Source of the DNA: Fistulifera solaris
Lineage: Eukaryota
Direction of reading: 5' to 3'
Length of the DNA stretch: 64,000 nucleotides
Assembly: GCA_030295235.1 (NCBI GenBank)
Contig: AP026126.1
Location: 1,178,001 to 1,242,000, forward strand
A model generated the notes under the pieces. The model saw only the letters and a program-made list of their open reading frames with translations. It searched no databases and was not told the origin of the DNA. The number at the start of each line of letters is the position of its first letter. Within the stretch, counting starts at the first letter, position 1. Below, in pieces: positions 5,046-43,600 of this stretch. The position numbers were made by a program, and so were the translations under genes.

Positions 5046-8000
5046 ATGAAGAACTCAATTTCTTGTCTTACATTTCTCTTTGTAGCTTGGGGCTCTCAAA
5101 TTTGCCAGTCTGCGTGGTTTCCCCGCCCGATGGCCTTGACATTGACACCCCGATGGAATGGAGACGGTGCATCGGATATTATTCTTTCGATCCGAGGAGG
5201 AGGACATGGACAAGACGACGCGGAACGATACAGTCGACAGTTGTATGCATTAGGAGCTCGAGCGCAAAGTCTCATTCGATCTTCTCTCATTTATTTAGAC
5301 GGACCGCCTTCTTCTGGTTTGCTTTACGAAACAGCCAAGAATTTGGCCCTTTCGGGTGTTCGACATATTGTCATTGTACAATCCGATGATGAAATGGATA
5401 CTCTTTATCACAATGAACAACTGGATGACTTAGGCAATGCTTACCAGCGTTCTATACGAGCAGAATTGGAAGAATTGGGCCATTCAACAAAGGAAATTCC
5501 CTCGGGAGCGGAGCTTTTACTGCAATACATTCGTCGTCTCAATCCCGGTGTGCAGGTATCGTTGGCAAATAGAAACGAGTTACAGCAACATATATCGATC
5601 CGCGATGGAGAAATCATTCGCCGCGTACTGGTCAGTGTCGATCGTCCGCCGCCGTCGAATTTGCAGCTCAATCAAATGGCTCGTGACAAGGATTGGGCTT
5701 TCGTGGCGGTCGAAACGGCGGGGGTCTTTGGACGCCTCTTTTGTGATTTTGGATCATCCTTTCAGGTCGAAGATGTGGATGGTGAAACTCCTCTGGTGAC
5801 GCCGTTGGAAAAAATTGAGGAGAATGGTGATACCTTGGTTGTGAATTGCATTTTGGGGGAAAAACACGATGTCTCGAAAGGTGATCAGATTGAATTTCAA
5901 TTACGAAACGGCAGTACTATCGAGCAACGATGTCTCGTCACCAGCGTTCAAAATCCCTTTCGGTTTTCGATTCAGTTATTAGAGAATTCGAGTCTTTCGC
6001 AACAGCCTAGTTCTTTCGAGTTTGTTGCATTGGTCAACAGTCAAGCGGCTTCGTTTCGACGAGTCAAAGTCCCACAATCCATTGAATTTCTATCCTTGGA
6101 GGAGGCTCTCAAGTCTGCTAGCTCAGATCCCTCTTTATTTGCTGCGTGTGACTTGGAAAAGAGCTTTGACGATACCAGGAAAGTAGCATCCATGGCGTGT
6201 TTTCAGGCTCTTTACGATTTTGTGAAGGAAAAAATTGCTACCCTCAATTATTGGATATAAATGAATTCTGGGATATGTCTGTAGCGGCATACCCATCACT
6301 GGCAACAGTTGATCCAGAGGAAGCTAAATCCCATCTCAAATCTTTTCTGCGGGGCTGCGGGGCGAAACTCACGCCATTTTTGGCATTTTTTGGAGCGGTT
6401 GCTGCGCAAGAAGCCTTGAAAGCATCTACAAGTCTTTATTTCCCAGTAAAGCAATTTCTGCTGTATGATTGTGACGAAGTGCTACCGAAACTGGATCAAG
6501 CTGAGACCCGCAAAGGGGCATCGTGTTTGGTACCCGGGCTTCGGTGTATACTTGGCGATGATATCGTCGACACTTTACAGTCCAAGCAATTATTCATAGT
6601 TGGCGCTGGAGCCATAGGCTGTGAGCTACTTAAGAATTTGGCTTCAATGGGTGTTGGTACCAAGGGTCACGGAAAAGTGTACTTGACGGACATGGATACA
6701 ATTGAAAAATCGAATCTTAGTCGACAACTTCTATTTAGAGACAATGATATCGGCGATTTCAAAAGCGCTGCCGCACAAAAAAGCAGCTTGTCGCTTCTTT
6801 CGTGATATCAGGATTGAATCTCATACTAGCCGGGTAGGCTCGGGGGAAAGAACTCCGTTTGACGAGGCATTCTGGTCAAATCGGGTCGACGTTGTCCTGA
6901 ACGCGCTTGACAATGTCGAAGCAAGAATGTTCATGGATGAACAATGTGTTAAATACAGTAAGGCATTGGTTGATGCTGGGACGATGGGCTCTAAAGGAAA
7001 CGTACAGGTCGTGGTTCCGGATCAAAGTGAATCTTATGCGTCCAGTGTGGACCCTCCGGAACCCTCGATCGCTGTTTGCACGCTGAAAAATTTCCCATAC
7101 GCTATTGCGCATACTATTCAATGGGCACGAGACTTATTTGACGGACTTTTTCAACGACGGTGTGATCGCTCTAATCAACTCCTTGAAAAGACTAAAGGCA
7201 CGTCAATTGATGACATAGTTATTAAGTTGCTTAGTGACAGCAGTGAGGAAGCAGCCCAAGAGATTGCTGTCGAAGTGAAGGAAGACCTTTGGCACTCTCT
7301 ATCGATGCGGATAAAGACCTAAAAAGTCTTGTTTTAAATTGGGCGGCAACGATGGCTGTTCAATTCTTCTTGGTCGCCCCAAGGAATTTGATCAAAGAGC
7401 ATCCTTTGGGAAGTCGCGATGAAGACGGTGAAGCATTTTGGACTGGAACTAGGCGACCTCCGCGAGAGTTGTCATTCTGTCCAGAAGAAAATGGAGTTGA
7501 CCAAAACGTCATCAACGCCAATCTTGTTGACTTTGTCCGAGAGGCAGCACGACTTCGATTCGAGACAATAACGGGCAAAGCATCAGCAGGGTTAGATTCA
7601 ATGTTTACCTCAGAAGATGCTTCATCGATTTTGAGCGTCTATTACGAGCAATACCGCAGTGCAGCTGATGATATCGTCGAGTCAGAGACATCCGCAGAAG
7701 AAAGCTTGAGAGCAACTCTGGATGATGCAAGGTCACTTCTCTCTGACAAAAAGATGTCGACCATCGATTTCCAAAAGGACGATGAAACCAACGGCCATGT
7801 CGCATTCGTTAATGCAGCCAGCAATCTTCGCGCAATTTGTTACGGAATACCGCCTGTAGATCAAATGGAGACTCGTCGAGTTGCAGGCAACATAGTTCCC
7901 GCTATGATAACTACCACGGCGTTGGTGTCGGGCCTCTCGTGTATCGAGCTACTCAAACTGTCGCAGAATTTACCACTTCGAAGCTATCGAAACGCTTTTA

Positions 8001-8482
8001 TCAATCTAGCTCTACCTTTCTTCGCATTCACGATTCCTCTTCCAGCTGCGACTGTTTCGATCTTCAATGGGCGTTCGTACACAATATGGAACCGATTGAC
8101 GATAAGGGAAAGTAAAGTGGCTGCAGCAAAGGGAGGTATTACGATGAGGTCCATGATGCAAAAACTAAACGAGATGATATCCGGCGACAGCGAGAAAATA
8201 GATATTTCTTCCGTATCGCTGGGACCTTATCTCCTTTATGCCAGTTTCTTGAATGAAGACGACGACGAAATATTAGACAAACCTTTGTGGGAGGTAATCA
8301 AGAATGCGCTTGATGAGAGCCATTATTTTGAAAATGAAAATTCTCGTGGAGAGGACACTTCCGATCCTGGTGGTTTGCTTGTAGAAAACGGCACCGTCGA
8401 GATTGCCGTGACTGTTCTAGATGGAGATGGACAGGAAATCGAGCTGCCCGCAGTACAAGTTGTCCGCCATTCTAGCGAGTAG
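5046..8482 (+). CDS. UBA1: Ubiquitin-activating enzyme E1 with N-terminal signal peptide (probable symbiont-derived SELMA E1); apparent frameshifts near 6230, 6780 and 7290
   Basis: RYSRQLY.LG, ETAKNLALSGV, GAGAIGCELLKN, DMDTIEKSNLSRQLLF, NALDNVEAR, catalytic CTLKNFP and AGNIVPAMITTT. Hydrophobic N-terminus. Confidence 0.9.
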
Positions 8483-9235
8483 CTAGACCCTCTTCACATT
8501 AATTTTAACATGATGCCAGAAGTGCAAAGGAGAAGTAAAATCATCAGCAAACTTCGTCGATGAAATGTCACGACAATATCTTCCAATCTGTCGCTTTTAC
8601 CTACCATGTTCTGTGTCTGGATTGCAGTTCAACAGACCACTGGGCGAGGGTACGAATCAGGCTTCTAAGACAGACTAGAGATCATTGGGAAAAAACAACC
8701 GCGTCCGCAATACGGTAATATCCATGACTAAAAGCTTCGGGCTTCTTCAAGGATGTCTAAAAATGGATTGGACGTCGCGAAGACAGCAACATCATGCGGT
8801 CCGGCTCAAGAGCTATACTGTCTTCATGGGCGGTTGCCTTTTAACATAAGAATATAGAATGAAGAAGAATGCACATGACACCGCAATAATTCGAGCAACA
8901 TATGCAAAGCGTTTGGAATTTTGATACAATCCATTGTTGAACAGGTTGGTCGAGTAGTGAAAGAAGAGATAGAATAGGCGGATGACGCTGCGAATATAGC
9001 TTTCGTTGCAGCTGTTGTTGTGGGTGTAATGGTTTTTGTCGAACCATTCTTTACTATCGCGACTAACGGATGATTTACTGGCAGACTACGGTAAGCAGGA
9101 TTTGAAATGGAAGCTCATATTCTATTCCTTCGGATATCAACGAAGTACAAAGCGGATGGGGCCGCGATTTTGGGTACTGCTCTTGGCCATCTCATGTGGC
9201 AAGACGGTGTTGTCGTCAAGCGTGAGTTACTGTGG

Positions 9236-9964
9236 AATATGGATACATGGCGAATGAATTGGCGAATCGCATCGCCGACGCCGTATGGACGCCATGATTG
9301 ATGGGGATTATAGGATACGCTTTTTCATTGAAAATGCAATTACTGGTAGCGAGTGAACTGGGAAAGCACCGCAACGTTGTAATCTGTGAGTTGGCAGCAC
9401 CAGCATCGAGGAAACGTTTTCGGGCTAATAAGTCGATCGATTCCGAGAACCCTGTTTGGTTGAGTTTATGGACGCATCACGAGATGGAATTGTTGGACGA
9501 ATAAATGAATTACCTCCCGTCGCCCTTATCGCTTGTCGCCCTACATCCATCACGGAAATCGAAACATGGCGAGTGACTTCGTGGATCATGTCGCCGACAC
9601 CGTGATTGACGATATGAAAAAAGGGGTTACGGATACGCTCTGCCACTGAAAATGCATTTACTGGTAGTGAGCGAGCAGGGAAAGCGTTGCTCTCTGTGAG
9701 TTGGCAGCCCCAGCAGCATTGAGGAAACGTTTTCGGTCATGTTCAGTAGACACATTTCATCGTGATTGATTCAACCAACAGCTAGAAAAGAGCAATAAGA
9801 AGGATTGAAGACTAAATGAGCTGTTGCATTGCGATCGTTTATTGGTGGCAGCTTCATAACGTCTTGCTCATGAACAGTTTATGGAAGCATCACGAAACGG
9901 AATCATAGAACGATGTAATGGATGAGCGTCTCCCGTCGCCATTGCCTGCCGCGCGCATCCATCA
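9236..9964 (+). repeat. Diverged tandem duplication (~320-bp unit; copy 2 has an extra ~100 bp), probably a decayed coding relic
   Basis: TGAAAATGCA.TTACTGGTAG...GAGGAAACGTTTTCGG at ~9329-9424 and ~9647-9737. AGTTTATGGA.GCATCACGA...CTCCCGTCGCC...CATCCATCA at ~9463-9551 and ~9876-9964. Confidence 0.75.
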
Positions 9965-10009
9965 GTTGTATTTTATATATTAATTAAAACTATTTGGTTT
10001 TGAAGTGAA

Positions 10010-10610
10010 GAAAGTGTTTGCATGTAGGGGTTGTGGTATACATTTTTCATTGTGCTGGGACATATGGGGGACCCTTGCTAGTGCCCGTAACCGCTAACCT
10101 ATTTCTAGGATAACTCATAAGCACCGCAAGAGCTCCGAAGACGTTAAGCAGATGTCAACAAGCGATCACAAACGCCCATGTATCCGGTTGGGAGCGGAAA
10201 GGCGAATGTGGCTTTCATAAGCTGCTCAGCGGGTGAACCCCAAACCCCGCTCAACCGTTACCATTGCTTCACCAATCATCGGCGCACGCAGTTCTTCGGC
10301 ACGCCTCATGGATCCCACAACTCAGGTGAAGAACTTTTCCCAGCACAATGCTCCAACTGCGTGTTTTCCGGTAAGGCAGGAAGCCTCGCAAGCAGGCAAG
10401 CGAATCGTCGAGACGACACGAGGTTGCCCTTTCGCGAGACGACTCCTCCTTCCTCGGGACATACGCACCACAACCCTTCATGCGCTCCCACTAAGTATTC
10501 AACCATACGGTCCCAAGCTGTGATCGCAGGCCACAGCTTTGGCAACAACTGAATACGGGGAGGACATCAAACCTCTCTCAGTCGCCTTCGAGAGGAGATG
10601 TGAGAAGAAG
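10010..10610 (+). ncRNA. Candidate large structured non-coding RNA of unknown family
   Basis: Nested long-range stems: 10020-10036/10468-10483, 10048-10060/10338-10350 (13 bp perfect), 10358-10370/10455-10467 and 10495-10501/10550-10556. G-U pairs mostly favour the + strand; TATATATTAA at 9974-9983. Confidence 0.5.
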
Positions 10611-11171
10611 AAGAACGCAGCGAAAAAGAGGGAAACAAAAATTCAGCGATGCTACTCCTATCGTAGTAGTAAGATCAAAAATAAGTTTGTTCTCCTAAAC
10701 TCAATTTAAAATCATTTAGAAAGAGCTATCTAAGTATTTCTGTCTCGAGCAACGGTTTTTTCCAAATGTTGGGATCCCACGACCCACGAGTGAAAGTTAC
10801 GGTACCTGGTATACGCGTCTGAATATTTTCATGAACGCAACTGCGAACCCGCCCTGCTCGTATCTCACAAGCGAAATACGCGGTGAAATACCTTGTAATG
10901 GATGTTGGAGGCAAGTTGTTCGCCTCGAAGATGCTGATAGGTGAGACGACGATTTATGTTTGGTTTTCTTTGACGCGTTCATGCAGTCTCAGTCCTGTTG
11001 CTACAATCGCAAACCCTTGATGTGTAGCTTGTCTGCATGTCTGCGTCAGGTCAGCCACAACATTCGCCATTATTCTGTGCGTCCGTCTTAATTGCGATAA
11101 TTTTTTTATTGATAACTGTGAATTGTTGATCACAAGCCATCACAAACTAAATCTTATTTCTCTTTCGTAGA

Positions 11172-12437
11172 ATGACGATCGAATGCACGTGTAATTTGAG
11201 ATATGGAGTCGAAGAAGCGTCCTCGCCGTTAACGATGGAGGCTTCCTTCGTTCACTTGAATGTTCCTTTGGAAGAAGAATCCCGGGTGCGGAAGAAATCT
11301 GTTTGCTCAGAATGGACGCGACAAACAGAGAAATGGACTTGTGAAACTCCTCAATCGTGTTGCTGGGAATGTCTTTCGCGCCTGCAACAAGCTCTCGAGA
11401 AAGATACGGAACGGTTAGAGTACGAAAGTAATGCTTACGTGAATCACGCACAAGCCGCCAGATTGCGTCAAAAACAGTGGCAACAAAAAGTCGATGGCGA
11501 ATTGACGCGAGAGCAGCTGGTGGAACAAGCAAAAGAATCTTATACTAGAGAAATTGACGAGATCACCCTGGCTTGTGAGCAACTCGAGGCTGAATTCAAT
11601 GAACTAAGAATGGCTCGTCGAGAACTCGCCGCCAAGGCAAAGGAGCTCGATAAGGCAACAGAAGAAATTTTCAGAGCCCGAAACGATATTGAGCTTGCTG
11701 CCGCTAATATAGAGCAGGATCAAGCAAACTTGAACGGAGCAGTAGCTTCCGCACACGAACAAATCGATAGCCTGTCCTCGACGAGGATTCAACTCTACTC
11801 GCAGTCGTTTGACCTGCAGGTCGATCAAGAGCGCGGCCTTCGATATCCACTGATCAATGAACATCGTTTAGCATATCGTCCAAAGGGTGATGTCCATTGG
11901 GAGGAGATTCAGACGGCTTGGTCATTAGCAGCACAGCTTCTTTTAGTTGTTGCATCGACATTTCGGTTTCAATCACGACATTGGCGCATCGTCCCCCTAA
12001 CCGACTGCGCTAAATTGATATTCTATCCACCGACACAAGACCAGAAAACAGTTCCAAATCCGATTTCATATAATTTGGGACACCCGGAAACTCACAATGG
12101 CCGTGCCCTTTTGGCATGGAATGCTTTGTTACATAGCGTAGCTTCATGGATTCTTACGCGTGGCAGTCCTGAAGGGACAACCGGGACGCAACAGAAACGA
12201 GAATCCCGTCGTATTCCGTTTGAAATGACTCGTAACTCAATCGGAGACAAACTAATTTCGTCGTTGCTGGATAATGACGACAGTGGATGGTCGATAGTTA
12301 TTCATCGCATGTCATGCAACCTGCTGTGGCTGGCGCAATGCGCTAATGATCAGATTCTTGATCAGGTAATACTGAAGGCGACTATGTCGACCAGCAAGCG
12401 GACTGGTATAAATGATACAACGGATAATGTACAATAG
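11172..12437 (+). CDS. ATG6: Beclin-1/Atg6/Vps30-like protein (coiled coil + BARA domain); true start uncertain
   Basis: Long coiled coil followed by YPLINEHRLAY...VHWEEIQTAWSLAAQLL, matching the Beclin IN.FRLG...V.W.EINAAWGQ..LLL motif. C-terminal W...M..NL.W motif. Confidence 0.8.
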   Translation: MTIECTCNLRYGVEEASSPLTMEASFVHLNVPLEEESRVRKKSVCSEWTRQTEKWTCETPQSCCWECLSRLQQALEKDTERLEYESNAYVNHAQAARLRQKQWQQKVDGELTREQLVEQAKESYTREIDEITLACEQLEAEFNELRMARRELAAKAKELDKATEEIFRARNDIELAAANIEQDQANLNGAVASAHEQIDSLSSTRIQLYSQSFDLQVDQERGLRYPLINEHRLAYRPKGDVHWEEIQTAWSLAAQLLLVVASTFRFQSRHWRIVPLTDCAKLIFYPPTQDQKTVPNPISYNLGHPETHNGRALLAWNALLHSVASWILTRGSPEGTTGTQQKRESRRIPFEMTRNSIGDKLISSLLDNDDSGWSIVIHRMSCNLLWLAQCANDQILDQVILKATMSTSKRTGINDTTDNVQ

Positions 12438-12452
12438 ATTTACTTTTTGATA

Positions 12453-15400
12453 TTAATGCTCTGGTGCGATGAGAGGCATGCTTTCGCTTGGATAACTGGC
12501 AATGGATTGCGTCTCAGGGTCAACAAGTCGAAATGCGCCCGAGTATGGTGCACGTCTCTTTGCTATGGTGGCCCTTTCAAGCTCGTGATCATGGCGCAAG
12601 TAACGTCCATTGAACGTAGCGAAGAATACAGTCGCTCCCGCGTGGAGGACTATCAGTAGATAAAAAGAAAATGTGTATTCCGGCTTTTCTGAAACTCGAG
12701 TCTCAGTCTTCCCAAGACCCATGTCTTTCATAGCTTTGAAGCAAGGAATGAACATAGCACTCAACAGGTTCGAAAAGAGCTGTTGTATCACAAGAACCGT
12801 GTTTTCACTCAACGGATAAACGACCTCAACTCCCAACTCGGTTGAAATTGGTTGCAACGGACCCACTAGTAAAGCAACTATGACAAGGGCAAATCTCAAA
12901 TCCGTCCCTTTGGCTTCGTCTAAGCTTACCCCACATTCGGCTAAGCCGAATGCCCCCATCACCAACATGAAAATAGTGATGGAGTAATATGTACGCGTAG
13001 TGTCACAAATCTTTCCTACAATGAGACTGGATACCATGATGGCAAACTGAAAAGTTCCCCCAACTATACCCGTATAGGCTCGCCCTGCACCATTGAGTCT
13101 CACGAGATAATCCATAAACGTTGACAATGTGTTGATCACTACCCCTGAAACTGTAAAGGCAACTAGAGAGTGAACGAAACCTCTCCGAGCCATGCAAGCC
13201 TTTATTGATAGTAGAACTTGATCATCTCGAATGTTAATATCGAGGTGATGTGGGGTAAGTATGAGCACCGGTTCCGCTCCCTCATCAAGTGCATCACTTG
13301 GTAACGCGTACTGATTGCCTCCTGTGTAATAAGAATTCAGCGGGTAGTTATAGCTCTGATATGGAAAGCTTGATCCATAAAGCGGTTGCGGGGTCTGATA
13401 GTATGCAAGGTTGTCGAAACTCTGCTCCGCATAAGGCAACTGGTGAGGCTTGCCCGGATAAAGAGGATAGAAGTATGAAACCTCGTCACCTTGCAAATTG
13501 TGATGGAGAAAGCTAGGCCACGCGCCAGCTTGGACCAATATTTCGTCAGGATCACTGACAGGAAAAGGTATGCTTCGGCCTGGCGGTTGCATGTAAGGAT
13601 AATGGCTTGCATGCATCAAGTATGGGTGCATCACCTGCGGATTATTTGTGGTTTGGTGCTGTGTGTCGTCATCGTCACTTTCATTGCCGTTGTTGGGGGA
13701 CGAAACAGGCCAAACATTGGACGGAGAAGGAGCAGGATGAACGGCTTCGTCGTGGTAGGCGGGAGAGCCGCCTTCATGGGACACCGATTCTTTCTCATCG
13801 CTCAACATTTCTGAAGCATTGCAACTCTGTCGTTGGGAGCCATCTAAGGAGTCAGAAACAACTGACTTTCCCTGCAGAGAATGGTTCAAGTCTTTTTCCT
13901 GTTTCTTCCTACTACGAAAATTGAAAGACTTTGAGAAACGTTCCGGGCGGTCTGCACCAATGTTTCTAATGGAGTCAAACATGGATTGGACGCTCGGTAA
14001 CTTCACTTCAAGCGTTCCCTTCATAACACGAGCAGAGTCCGAGGGCGGGGTCGGAGGAGCGTCCTCAAATTGTATCAAAACACCCAAGAAGGTGACCGTT
14101 GATATAATGCTAAGGAGTCCAAAGTAAGGAGGAATATCATCACTGTCGACAACGAGAAGGGTACCGAATATGAAAGCGAAGCCAATCCCAACCTGGTTGG
14201 CGTTCAACGCAATTCCTGTAGCCAGAGTGCGCTCCACGTCTGGAAACCAAGAAGCTGACAATAAAGCAGGAGTACATTGGTACAAAGGCTGGGACAAGCC
14301 AACAAGAAGGAAGCCAACATAGACACGCCACTCGCCCTGGCCCTTCTGCAAGTCGGCTTCAATTATCGGTGGCATCCCACCGCTTTTCACTATACTTCCA
14401 ATCATCAACAGAAGAGACCCGAAGAGTACAGTGCGACGAAGACCCAGACGTGAAAGAATAATGGGCTCACATGCCGAGGCAACTGCATTTGCAATCAAAA
14501 AAACGGTAACTAAAAGCTCAGGGTTAATACTTCCAAATGCTTGTTCCGTCAGTAATGCAATAGGTGCGACGGAGTAGCATGTCCAATCAGACTATCATGA
14601 TGCCATTGAGTGAGCTCACGAACTTCATAAAAAGAGATTTGAATTCTAAAACCCGTACTTACCAGTAAATTCAGCACCGACATGTACATCAGCATAAGCC
14701 AGCGCTTCCAATAAACTTTAAACTCACTGTTGTGTCCCGCGTCACGCTCAGAGGGCTCCTCGTTGTATACTTGCTGGACAGCTGAGGAATCAAATTTATT
14801 TACATTGCGTGGTTCGGCCGCTCTAATCCCAGGATTGCGACCCTCTTTGCGCTGTGAAAACTGTTCTGTTCCAACATCTACTGACTGGATACCTAATCCA
14901 CGAACACAAGCGCCTGCAAATCTTTGGATATGCGAGTCATCAAATTCTCCCTCGAAATGATCAGCGCTATATTCAGATGGATCTGTGTTGGAGTGCATAC
15001 TTCCCGACGTCGGAGTGTTCCGTTTGGCGTATTCAAACAAGTTCGTGTTTTGTTGATATGCAGCCTCCAGCCAGTTAGCCAACTCGTCTTGTGACAAGTT
15101 TTGTGCCTGAGGGTGTAAATACGCTCGATTCTGTTGATATTCACTAGAAATGGTTGGAGGAGACGGATCCAACCCTGCAGACGAAGGGCTCGACAAGGCC
15201 ACGTTTCCCCGGCTTGGTGGATGCTCACCCATGATGGGAGATTTTCGTCCACTCGGCACAGACGTAGGAAACCGGTTGGTCTGGTTTGCGTTGTTCAATT
15301 CATCTCGAATGCTCGGATCGCTACTTTGATCGTCATCACTGCCTCTAGGGCTCCCGAGAAAGCATTTCGACCCCGGTGTATTTCTGTGAGATTGCTCGGT

Positions 15401-39461: not shown

Positions 39462-40295
39462 TCAAGATTTGAGCTGATCTTCATACAGCATCTCCATAAG
39501 TCGAGCGACAAACCAAAATTGCTGGTCTTGGGGAACCACATCAACTGGAGGGACGTGTAGAAACAAGCACCGCGTCCCACCCCTTGGATCATTAGAAACA
39601 ATCTGCAGCTTGTGGCTTTTGAATTTGTCAAGGCTGTAGCAATATATATAATTGCAAACAAATCGTCCGGGGTCGTTACTAAGGATGGAGTTCTTGCGAC
39701 AAACAGACATGGATTCACTTTCGTGTTTCTCGATGGTGTAATTTAGTTGCTCGACCAGAGAATTCACGTCCAACAGAGTCTCTAGCGCTCTTCCAACACT
39801 GATATCTTCACCTAGAATCGACTCTTTATTCGGTTGATAGCCTCGTTCATCCGGTATTCGAAAGGTGGCTTCGTTGTAGGCACACGACTCCAAGTGAAAC
39901 TTCTCCCCTTTGTAATTCACGCCAAGATGCAGTAGTATTGTTGTTGTTTGCTCAGAATATTCATTCGCTTGTTCATCTTCCCAAAATTTGTCAATAGCTG
40001 CTCGTGCAGCTTCTGCCGACGTTTCCAACACGAATGTGCTCGTTATCAAAGCCAAGTCGTTCATACCATGTTGATTGAGGTAATCAACGATTCCGTTCGC
40101 AAGAACGGTTGTGGGATTTTCCTGTAACGAGAGATACGAGAAAGGATCAGCGTATTTGTTTCAGATTTGCAAGAGGCCATTCATGCCTCATCGCACGAAA
40201 CTCACAGGTACCCCTCCGAACGGCCCAAAACCCGTCACCACAAACCGAAGAGAACGCTTGATATCATCATGAATTGAAGAATTGGCTGAAATCAT
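39462..40295 (-). CDS. PGPEP1: Pyroglutamyl-peptidase I (peptidase C15); intron ~40123-40205
   Basis: VVTGFGPFGGVP|ENPT, LHLGV, LESCAYN (Glu), DPGRFVCNYIY (Cys) and FLHVP (His). Confidence 0.92.
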
Positions 40296-40616
40296 TTTTG
40301 AATAATGCTATCATTATCAAAAAGTTAAAGAGCAATAATGATGATGAGCTGATGATATCAGGAAGAATAGCCTTATACTGTACCATTATCATGATTGAAT
40401 AATCATCATCATGTCATGAGTTTTCGCCCGCTTCGCTTGAAAAGGTACTTTGTACAGTACCCGGTACCAGTACCGGTACCGGAAAGACAACTCTCTCCGT
40501 ATCAATGCTTCCGCGCGTAGCGCGCATGTCACCATCAAACAAAAGATACTGCGGAACGCCAAGGTCTCACCGCAACAATGAGAGAGTTACAATCATGAGG
40601 TTGAGACAATGATAAC

Positions 40617-43600
40617 ATGAACTGCAATGATGAAGAAACGCCTTTGACATGTAGCAAACTAGATGATAAACGTCAAAGTCGAGATTCATTATGCCGACGC
40701 GCACTCTCTCAGTTCGCAGTGATACCTTCCTTTGTTGCTTTGCTTCTGTCAGTCATCGCTTTCGGATGGAATCTTTTCGGCGCAACGAGCAGCATTTCAT
40801 CTACACTTTCATCTGCGACCGACCCACAGCACATAACAAAAGAAGGGGCTCTTCCCAATTTTGATCGCAAAGATGGGAACTCTCTCTTTGACGAATTAGG
40901 TCGTACCATTTTGGAAGACTACGATGTCCAATCCGTTTTTGCCAACTTTCTGCCTGCTGTCGCAGGCTACTTCGGGAAAACCTCTGTATGCTTTTTTACG
41001 TGAATAGAGGATAAGCCATAGCATCGTTTGGAACAGAATCGAAGGATTATTCCATCATGGAGTATCATTCAGCGAACGTTGCCTATCAGACAGTGGCTTT
41101 CACCGGTTTTCGCACTTTTCTTCAGTTCTCGAGGCCACAACATAACGATGCGTTTCAAGTCGTTGAACCATTTGATATCAGTAGAGCGAGACTACCGCAT
41201 GCTTCTCAAGAGAAGCCATCCGAGCTTCCGAAGCGCTCCATGTATACTGGAACCAATAATCTACAGATACACGAAATCGACATCTTGAACGGCATTGAAA
41301 CGAGCGTTACATTCTTTGTTTTGCCCGAAGAAAACTTCGGTGCTTTTGTGAAACGTACAACCATTCGCAATCTTGATAGACAAAAGGATTGCAAATTTCA
41401 GTCCTCGATGGGCTTGCTAGAATCGAACCAGCTGGTGGAAAGATGAACACGTATCTTAAATCAATGGGACAAACCTTAGAGGCGTTCAAGCGGGTTTATA
41501 GTGCAAGAACAGACTCTCTCACAATGCCTTTTACCGTCTTTCAACGATCCCTGGAGATTCAGCCTCCGTCGTTGCAGAAACAGCGGGCCATTGGTGTTTG
41601 TCAATCTACGAAACAGAGACAGGAACCCAACTCCTTCCAATCATTTTCGATCCCTCGTCTGTGTTTGGAAAGGATGCCTCACTTTTGTATCCCACTAATT
41701 TGTTTGACAAACCTATCAGAGATGTCATCCAGGAACCCCAGTATGGTGCAGCTAAAACGGCATCGGCGTTCACGGCTCTGAACGGCACTAATTCGGAGGC
41801 GGGAGGAAGTCTCACCATAACAACTTTCTGGATCAGATTTCTAAAGTGCCGGAAATAGCTCAACGATTGCTACAACCCGGTTTCGGACAGTACAAGACTT
41901 CTAGGACCTACGAGATAGTTCAGCAAATTACAGCCGCAGCAGAAACAAAGACGGCCAGTTCACTCTTTGATCTTCACGTAGAGCAAATGTTTCTTGACAA
42001 TAGTTTAAGTGGTGGAATGCCTAGCATTCTTGGCGACATCGACGACGATGCAAGAATGCGTAATGTTGATGAGGAAACCCGAATAAAAGTTTTCCATTTC
42101 TTTTCTCGAAATCATGGTGATCTCGAACGCGACTACAATGACTTTATCATTCCGTCGCATTCCTATCCGAGGTAAGTTTGTGTTTACGGTATCTCTAGCC
42201 GGATGCACCTCACATTTCGTTTTGCAGGGACCTGTCAATTTTCGAGACGTGATCCAAAACAGGAGAAATGACGTGACTTTCAACCCAAGCATCGGTTCCC
42301 ACAACATAAAAACGTTCTTGTCTTTCATCCAGTCAGACGGCTACGAGCCTCTTTCCGTCGAGGCCCCGATTTTGGTTATACAAGACAAACGAATATGCAG
42401 GAGACTAGCAACGCTTGCAGTTGGCGAAGCAGATGGCCACAGAGCCCAGCGCGAAGCCGTTCAAAGTATTTTATGTTCGGGTCCATTTCGACCAGGCCAA
42501 CTGTTCGAATTAATGGAACAGCAGAACGTTTACCTTATGATATCAAAGAAAGAATTTATTGATGTGGTCGCAGCCTCTTCGAAGCAGTTCCCCATGGCGG
42601 TATCTGATAACGGGTTTTGGGCAGATCAATGGACGTATTACATGGACCTAGTCAACAATTTTTTAAGCGTTTTTCCAGATTGGGAAGAGCGACTCATGTA
42701 CGAGTATGAGCTTCCATACTTCTTTTCTCCTTTCTACGTTAAGCCACGTGAGGAGAAATATGTTCTTTCCATGTCGTTCGACGGTAGGAGTGAACATGTC
42801 AGACAGCTTGATTGCGTTAGGGAAGACGAGGATAAAGTGAGCTACATGAAGCAGTTTATCAAGAAAGCAACTGGTTGGTACGACTATCAAGCGAATTGGC
42901 AGCATAATCAGGGGAGATGGGAGTGTATTTAAAAGTGCACCCATTGCAAAACTGTTTCTTCTCGCGACGTTGAAATTTACCACACGTGACGCCATGGGGA
43001 TGGGGATAGAATATGAGGCGGGTAAGCCCGGTTGGAACGACGCCAACAATGGGCTTGTCGGAATGCTAGGTTCAGGAATGCCCGAAACCTACGAGTTAGT
43101 CGTATTGTTAAAGTATATCAGATCGCTATCAGCTAGATGTTGGCGCCCCTTACTCATACCATGTGAAATCTATGAGCTATTTGAAGTAGTCAATACAGCA
43201 ATCAGTAAATTGCGTGCAGAGCAGGTTACTAACTTCACAGGCTCGGACCGCGATGAGATGGTTGTCCCCGAGGCCCAATTCCGTTACTGGGAGAGGGTTT
43301 CATCGGCAAGGGAACGATACCGATCGAAAACGAAACTTACATTCGAGGGATCTCTTGTTGAGCTGTCGGCAAAAGATGTCGTCGCTGCAATCGATTCGTG
43401 GCTCTTTGAGCTCAATGAGGGTATCGCAAGATCATTCCTGTTCAGTACGTCCAATGGTAGAAACCACAAGAAGGTCCCGCCCACTTACTTTTTTTTATAC
43501 GGTGACGGAATGGAAAATGACTGGTTTAACCAATCATGAAGGCCATGCTCTTGTACAGGCAGAAAAGCTTCGCCTGAATACATTGCCGCTTTTCCTGGAG

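Follow-up and report, generated by a model that had tools for sequence, protein, structure and literature searches.

A strongly folded, non-coding block between E1 and ATG6 as a candidate structured RNA locus in a diatom close to Fistulifera

What is a strongly folded, 0.6-kb stretch of intergenic DNA doing between the E1 and ATG6 genes of a diatom? In the initial annotation of this locus, positions 10010-10610 of the window (the whole stretch of 64 kb that was analysed) were read as an unannotated, highly structured RNA candidate encoded on the + strand, with an architecture recalling telomerase RNA. Part of that interpretation stood and part did not: the stretch is an unannotated, structured RNA-like element without a known family, while the telomerase identity had to be given up and the preference for the + strand found no support in the G-U count. 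In what follows we set out the evidence on coding potential, recurrence and folding, and weigh the readings that it permits, of which a lineage-specific structured non-coding RNA locus is the one that we tentatively prefer.

The block and its neighbourhood

The stretch 10010-10610 is flanked by two + strand genes, which leave a gap of 2.7 kb. Upstream, an ORF at 7289-8482 (+ strand) was found to carry the E1 SCCH and ubiquitin-fold domains, and downstream an ORF at 11172-12437 (+ strand) carries the Apg6 coiled-coil and BARA domains; the Pfam domains of both neighbours therefore agree with the proposed location between an E1 ubiquitin-activating gene and ATG6. The diatom origin suggested for the DNA was also found to be right, the ATG6 protein being closest to that of the pennate diatom Fistulifera solaris. 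Its nearest named proteins are two F. solaris homeologs, one with 94% identity across 68% of the query and the other with 89% across 59%, as against 31-35% for other named pennate diatoms. The block differs from the rest of the gap in base composition, with a G+C content of 0.53 versus 0.42-0.45 elsewhere in the gap and a CpG observed/expected ratio of 0.95 versus 1.19-1.24 around it, and the TATA-like motif that had been noticed upstream of the structured stretch is present (Table 1).

The stretch 10010-10610 is non-coding. No frame is open across the block, and Pfam searches on all 31 stop-to-stop ORFs of 8514-11167 gave no match better than E 0.02, all of them under the cut-offs. No relatives were found of a 124-aa + strand ORF in the gap, and related sequences carry one-base indels at 10094, 10124, 10226, 10228 and 10234. 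It had also been proposed that the stretch lacks the marks of known RNA families such as the U snRNAs, SRP RNA and RNase P/MRP RNA, and the Rfam results are in line with this. A scan of the whole 64-kb window with 4227 models produced no match at gathering scores and no rRNA, 5.8S or snRNA gene, and when matches with E up to 10 were admitted over 9900-10950 only three chance-level ones appeared (E 0.2-7.1, far under the gathering scores). ARAGORN detected neither tRNAs nor tRNA-like heads. Short exact words from the block were equally uninformative: the 18-mer 10339-10356 occurred at 14 loci in metagenome contigs, of which five gave blastn matches of 20-28 nt and nine gave none, which points to chance, as do the two loci at which the 20-mer 10388-10407 occurred in prokaryote genomes; neither word matched any IMG/VR viral contig.

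Recurrence in public sequencing runs

A word index showed that 20 of the 21 runs listed, from 13 studies, contain part of 9960-10660; four of the 21 contain at least half of it, and two are on record as RNA. Four runs (X1, X2, X7 and X8), picked for containing the block, were aligned to 7000-13000 at 85% likeness, and contigs on the block were present in all four. X8 is on record as a metatranscriptome RNA library, whereas the kinds of the other three were guessed (X1 and X7 as RNA, X2 as DNA). RNA data contain the block, and related organisms have it too; the evidence for its transcription is its presence in one library on record as RNA (X8) and in several guessed to be RNA.

In X1, which must come from the same or a very close organism since the flanking genes match exactly over long contigs, 10042-10361 is found without a single difference in one contig with a depth of 407.9, the most abundant contig of the run, as against 6-17 for the contigs of the flanking E1 and ATG6 genes. 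Word depth in X1 was 366-1160 on 10015-10617, compared with 3-17 on E1 and ATG6, 13-30 on 8809-10014 and 83 on 10618-10818, although word depth is a poor measure and contigs give no RNA strand, ends or level. X7 contains 10104-10391 with two differences, and X8 has five contigs over 10045-10588 at about 91-97% identity. In X2, 10042-10626 is tiled at 86-100% identity, and one contig (9935-10278) bridges the unique upstream DNA and the block, which places the block at the same locus in a relative. Identity is unevenly spread, with eight differences in the 307 positions of 10282-10588 versus 19 differences and two gaps in the 157 positions of 10042-10198. The X2 and X8 alignments stop sharply at 10042-10045, the abundant X1 contig begins at 10042, and one X2 contig ends at 10626; we take the break at 10042 as the edge of conservation or of a set of variants, which falls short of proving an RNA end. 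The scant or missing cover of the E1, ATG6 and MFS coding parts in X2, X7 and X8 is no evidence that the block is more conserved than the genes, as holes prove nothing in runs chosen for the block.

The same contigs also touch on the sequence around the block. One X1 contig fuses 9972 to 10042, omitting 69 nt (9973-10041) that hold the TATA-like box and one arm of the outer stem; a second one differs over 9973-10041 by four substitutions and two indels, and the window version of 10005-10029 was not seen among the X1 contigs. In E1, ORFs 6702-7322 and 7289-8482 overlap in different frames. By simple arithmetic, an extra T carried after 7287 by one X1 contig would bring both into one frame, and the frame break near 7287 is probably an assembly or strain indel rather than an intron. 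Upstream of the block lie degenerate direct repeats, spaced about 315 bp apart (9234-9423 and 9554-9736, at 75%, as well as 9463-9482 and 9876-9895). This region (9234-9945), which is represented in X1 by an 890-nt contig at 9015-9903, gave no Pfam signal, and a short + strand ORF (9568-9651) opens one of the repeat units. On the - strand, 8813-9085 holds a hydrophobic open frame of 90 aa without a start codon, of which no relatives were found. An X1 contig matches it from 8947 and then departs into different sequence with a plausible frame retained, and the frame may be the relic of a gene. At the other end of the gap, a polypyrimidine tract and an AG, forming a splice acceptor at 11169-11170, abut the ATG6 start codon (11172), a GT stands directly after 10882 and another after 10940, and X1 depth drops in 11020-11220. 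It is possible that a 5'-UTR intron of ATG6 lies within 10883-11170; among the X1, X2, X7 and X8 contig joints listed, none connects 10882 to 11171.

Folding, stems and strand

Comparison of the fold energy with shuffled sequences on both strands, a check proposed when the locus was first described, bore out the strong folding. With RNAfold, 10010-10610 reached -207.8 kcal/mol on the + strand (z -4.12) and -235.8 kcal/mol on the - strand (z -3.55), and none of 20 dinucleotide shuffles was as good on either. For 10042-10626 the - strand gave -225.3 kcal/mol (z -3.40, 0 of 100 shuffles as good). Because the stretch had been chosen by eye, it was also compared with an internal background of 159 windows of 585 nt across the 64 kb, folded on both strands, in which energy was regressed on the composition of the folded strand (312 background strand-windows). 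Against this background 10010-10610 outfolds all 312 composition-corrected strand-windows on either strand (z -3.85 on + and -4.49 on -), and 10042-10626 outfolds 310 of 312 on + and all 312 on -. The fold is thus exceptional within the 64 kb on both strands. With G+C as the sole predictor, the + strand of 10042-10626 had seemed unremarkable (z -0.10; 75 of 159 windows did as well) and the - strand extreme (z -3.34; one of 159 did as well, which was the overlapping window at 10001). This model was set aside, the regression on strand composition being the fairer control. The next most stable - strand windows after G+C correction were located at 40001-40985 (residuals -29 and -32 kcal/mol), partly inside another long inter-ORF gap (40064-42114), and had no Rfam match.

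The stems named in the initial annotation could be verified by letter. All six that were checked are present, five as perfect reverse complements (one of these with a single G-U) and the outer stem with one unpaired base. Perfect complements are 10048-10060/10338-10350, 10290-10297/10328-10335, 10495-10501/10550-10556 and 10515-10522/10532-10539, and 10062-10068/10175-10181 is the pair with one G-U. In the outer stem, 10020-10036/10468-10483 is paired save for one base, with a perfect 10-bp core (10028-10037/10467-10476) that the repeat finder scored as 100% complementary. The minimum-energy fold of the + strand contains the outer stem, the 13-bp stem, the long hairpin at about 10358-10467 and the three-way junction (Table 1).

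Table 1. Coordinates of the block and of the features in and around it
Feature	Position	Strand	Basis and remarks
TATA-like motif TATATATTAA	9974-9983	+	Sequence; missing in one X1 contig joining 9972 to 10042
Outer stem, 5' arm (on +)	10019-10037		RNAfold and letter check; pairs with 10466-10484; just outside the core block
Core block	10042-10626	not assigned	Recurs in other runs at 86-100% identity; high contig word depth
13-bp perfect stem, first arm, closing the multibranch domain	10048-10060		100% complementary, arms 277 nt apart
Hairpin with the proposed template (10088-10101) and two double-sided changes	10072-10132		Fold and related-contig substitutions
13-bp perfect stem, second arm	10338-10350		Repeat finder and letter check
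Long irregular hairpin	10358-10467		Minimum-energy and centroid folds
Outer stem, 3' arm (on +)	10466-10484		RNAfold and letter check
Three-way junction, GTATTCA/TGAATAC, ACC..GGT, AAGCTGTG/CACAGCTT	10495-10556		Folds and letter check
Terminal hairpin	10564-10601		Folds; chance-level Rfam match here (E 0.2, 18 bits vs gathering score 38.3)
Purine-rich, A-rich tract with (GAA)n	10590-10641	+	Reads on the - strand as a CU-rich 5' tract, paired with 10443-10455 in the - fold
AT-richer flank	10627-10882		Several X1 variant contigs; bin mean depth 83; loose ends at 10794, 10871 and 10882

It had been suggested that the non-canonical G-U pairs point to the + strand. The counts say otherwise: G-U pairs number 7-9 in the + fold and 26-33 in the - fold, and by this measure it is the - strand that is favoured. 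This higher count and the slightly better corrected z give a slight lean towards - as the transcribed strand, as far as the predicted folds can be followed.

The covariation tests took in 21 of the 56 differences between the related contigs and the window. On the minimum-energy folds, changes at paired sites kept the pairing in 13 of 18 cases on the - strand and in 5 of 10 on the + strand, and two double-sided changes fell at paired positions (10096/10111 and 10101/10106). These changes were judged by permutation, in which the same changes were moved to random sites of the same base. When the energy was recalculated by refolding after the substitutions, 355 of 500 null sets were as good on + and 307 of 500 on -. 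With the structure held fixed, the null sets that were as good numbered 282 of 2000 on + and 1095 of 2000 on - for 10042-10198, and 333 and 1060 of 2000, respectively, for the hairpin at 10072-10132; a modest excess was seen in one test, that of 10042-10361 (59 of 2000 on + and 174 of 2000 on -). Calling the - strand from the counts of 13/18 and 5/10 was considered and dropped, the permutation controls not being significant. By eye, the stem 10290-10297/10328-10335 seems to be lost in an X2 variant, where its 5' arm is replaced and its 3' arm is altered at 10328 and 10330. Taken from these sequence comparisons, structural conservation of the block is suggestive at best.

Possible identities of the block

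The reading that we put first, tentatively, is that a pennate diatom close to Fistulifera carries here a structured non-coding RNA locus specific to its lineage. In such a locus the block of about 585 nt (10042-10626) would be transcribed, perhaps together with the outer-stem arm (10019-10037) and the less conserved part up to about 10882. The folded RNA, made up of a multibranch domain closed by a stem, a long hairpin and a three-way junction, would itself act, for instance as an RNP scaffold or as a stable regulatory RNA, with no protein product. From the evidence above we infer that the locus is a gene of its own and that the fold is the selected feature, and likewise its strand, its ends and its function. 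In favour of the RNA locus are the lack of a coding signal, the exceptional folding potential, the recurrence in other organisms, the presence in an RNA library and the energy cost of the fixed structure over 10042-10361 under the random-site null (59 of 2000 sets as good on +). Against it we count the lack of a known family, the weak covariation, the guessed kinds of X1 and X7 and the stem that seems to be lost in the X2 variant, as well as the length of the 13-bp perfect stem and of the outer stem of about 18 bp, which are long compared with the typical helix of a functional RNA. Diatom non-coding RNA is poorly charted, and a conserved, abundant and strongly folded 0.6-kb RNA outside Rfam, if true, would be an entry point to lineage-specific RNPs. 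A bolder version, which we regard as rather doubtful, is that the block represents an undescribed RNA family of naviculoid diatoms, an abundant structured RNA of about 0.6 kb that would be kept at the locus in related genera and subgenomes and would serve as an RNP scaffold.

The alternative that survives best, and that we consider possible if somewhat doubtful, is a transcribed dispersed repeat inserted in the E1-ATG6 gap. It could be a non-autonomous retroelement or a SINE-like element, or else a piece of a structured leader from a retroelement or a virus-like genome, in which case the pairing would stem from internal inverted repeats or from a packaging or translation leader and would have no host function. 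X1 has 46 contigs on the 6 kb (17 at 99% identity or more, 16 at 95-99%, 7 at 90-95% and 6 under 90%, so that 13 are under 95%), and these contigs, the variants of low identity and the loose ends fit several copies elsewhere and therefore a repeat, which counts against the RNA locus. Many of the variant contigs lie on 8809-10882, among them seven that have T>C at 10760 in common and four skips of 66-73 nt, which we read as length variants rather than introns, as canonical intron ends are absent on either strand. Loose ends at 10571, 10794, 10871 and 10882 continue into sequence absent from the 64-kb window, and the contig that matches up to 10571 goes on for 255 other bases and reaches, 19 nt on, an ATG in good context, as a leader might. 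The repeat also draws support from X2, guessed to be DNA, in which block contigs stand at a depth of 21-25 beside others at 2-6, from the purine- and A-rich tract with (GAA)n that follows the block on the + strand, from a gap that at 2.7 kb is long for a gene-dense window, and from the lower CpG ratio of the block.

Nonetheless, the window holds no second copy of the block, no terminal inverted repeats or long terminal repeats were found in 8400-11300, no target-site duplication was seen by eye at 10042/10626 or 10882, and Pfam picked up neither a transposase nor a reverse transcriptase nor any other domain in the gap. Over 320 nt, the X1 contig of highest abundance shows no difference from the window locus, and the variant contigs have other possible sources. 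F. solaris is reported to be an allopolyploid with two subgenomes (preprint 10.1101/2021.11.10.468027), so homeologs or alleles could explain many of them; X1 has a variant contig at 96% for ATG6 too, the overlap of adjacent unitigs inflates contig counts at a site, and several X2 loose ends are, by eye, alignable and diverged versions of window sequence. As far as the sequences allow, what X1, X2 and X8 show in variant contigs and loose ends fits repeat copies, and also alleles, homeologs and locally diverged orthologs. Should the block be a transcribed repeat, it would be an ordinary element and a caution that fold statistics by themselves do not establish an RNA gene.

An unlikely possibility is that the block belongs to an mRNA, as its leader or another untranslated part, and affects translation or stability in cis; the mRNA could be that of ATG6 or of a gene that has gone unrecognised in the gap, or the leader could be common to a gene family. 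The X1 contig that runs past 10571 into a plausible start-codon context would suit this explanation, and so would the splice acceptor right before the ATG6 start codon with the GT after 10882, and the presence of 8809-10014 in X1 at depths like those of the neighbouring genes. The start-codon continuation, however, is absent from the 64-kb window, the joints listed include none from 10882 to 11171, the ORFs of the gap belong to no Pfam family and those tested have no relative, and X1 depth on the block is far above that on ATG6 and on 8809-10014, contig depth being a poor measure.

Ribosomal-DNA spacers have a higher G+C content, fold strongly, exist in many copies and abound in RNA data. The block might be an orphan fragment of an external or internal transcribed spacer, or of some other multi-copy unit that is homogenised, its abundance coming from master copies. 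We hold this to be very unlikely. The G+C content of the block relative to the surrounding gap, the direct repeats and AT-rich box upstream and the raised depth of the X2 block contigs are what a spacer would lead one to expect, but Rfam placed no rRNA or 5.8S match anywhere in the 64-kb window, and concerted evolution of an old orphan copy would be needed to account for an abundant X1 contig identical to the locus together with a junction at 10042 common to a relative. Between organisms that have diverged so far in other sequence, moreover, spacers seldom retain 97% identity.

That the block is a telomerase RNA, as its stem-closed core and distal three-way junction had suggested, is the weakest of the readings and scarcely credible, as it offers no template for CCCTAA, the proposed template is variable and Rfam gives no match. 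In F. solaris, CCCTAA is reported at 82 of 88 chromosome ends (preprint 10.1101/2021.11.10.468027). Words of this repeat, taken from the literature on F. solaris as the closest named relative, amount to no 9-mers, three 8-mers and 14 7-mers in the whole 64 kb, and neither strand of 9000-11200 has any of 7 nt or more. With the repeat of that relative, the comparison of the chromosome-end repeat with 10088-10101 proposed in the initial annotation came out negative. The proposed template differs in an X2 contig by substitutions at 10089, 10090, 10096 and 10101 and by a T inserted after 10094, and in the - strand fold it sits in a hairpin stem. The Rfam telomerase models gave nothing at E up to 10 over 9900-10950. 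Telomerase RNA candidates in this part of the tree have been defined by an upstream sequence element and a template matching the telomere, those of Diaphoretickes are described with a type-3 promoter (upstream sequence element and TATA) and a T-rich terminator, and RNA polymerase III transcription was inferred for the plant and ciliate RNAs (PMC8287931). Runs of four to five T on the + strand at 10043-10047, 10333-10336 and 10363-10366 are awkward for such transcription. Within the scope of that same survey, the convincing stramenopile candidate comes from the genus Blastocystis and diatom telomerase RNA is undescribed (PMC8287931), and the report of TTAGGG in two model diatoms and of a 12-mer in Nitzschia inconspicua (PMC8329260) indicates that templates can vary; both points leave some room for the idea. 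Another tract, AACCCCAAACCCC at 10236-10248 (+), was considered as a ciliate-style template and rejected, as it takes up the greater part of a hairpin loop (6-bp stem), runs into the 3' stem arm and misfits CCCTAA. The telomerase lead can be dropped whether the block is an RNA locus or a transcribed repeat. The rest of the probability belongs to chance or to something outside the explanations considered here.

How, then, does the block compare with systems that are known? Like telomerase RNA, it is non-coding and several hundred nucleotides long, and it has a core closed by a long-range stem as well as a distal three-way junction; unlike telomerase RNA, it has neither a CCCTAA/TTAGGG template nor an Rfam match, its proposed template is variable, and there are signs of more than one variant per organism. 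It resembles non-autonomous retroelements and structured 5' leaders in being non-coding and strongly folded, in occurring in several variants and in having a purine-rich end and one variant that reaches a start-codon context, yet it differs from such retroelements and from the leaders of retroelements or RNA viruses in lacking terminal repeats, a target-site duplication, a second copy in the 64 kb and an IMG/VR match to two exact words. With the RNP scaffold RNAs (RNase P/MRP and SRP) it has in common that it is multi-helix, possibly abundant and conserved beyond the surrounding intergenic DNA, whereas it matches none of their models at E up to 10, is longer than their typical members and has no conserved-region motifs that we could identify. 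Lastly, like the diatom lncRNAs and small-RNA intergenic loci described in PMC4247016, the block is intergenic, non-coding, apparently transcribed and diatom-specific. The loci presented there are short (about 85 nt) or repeat-derived, whereas the block is about 585 nt long and has an exceptional global fold.
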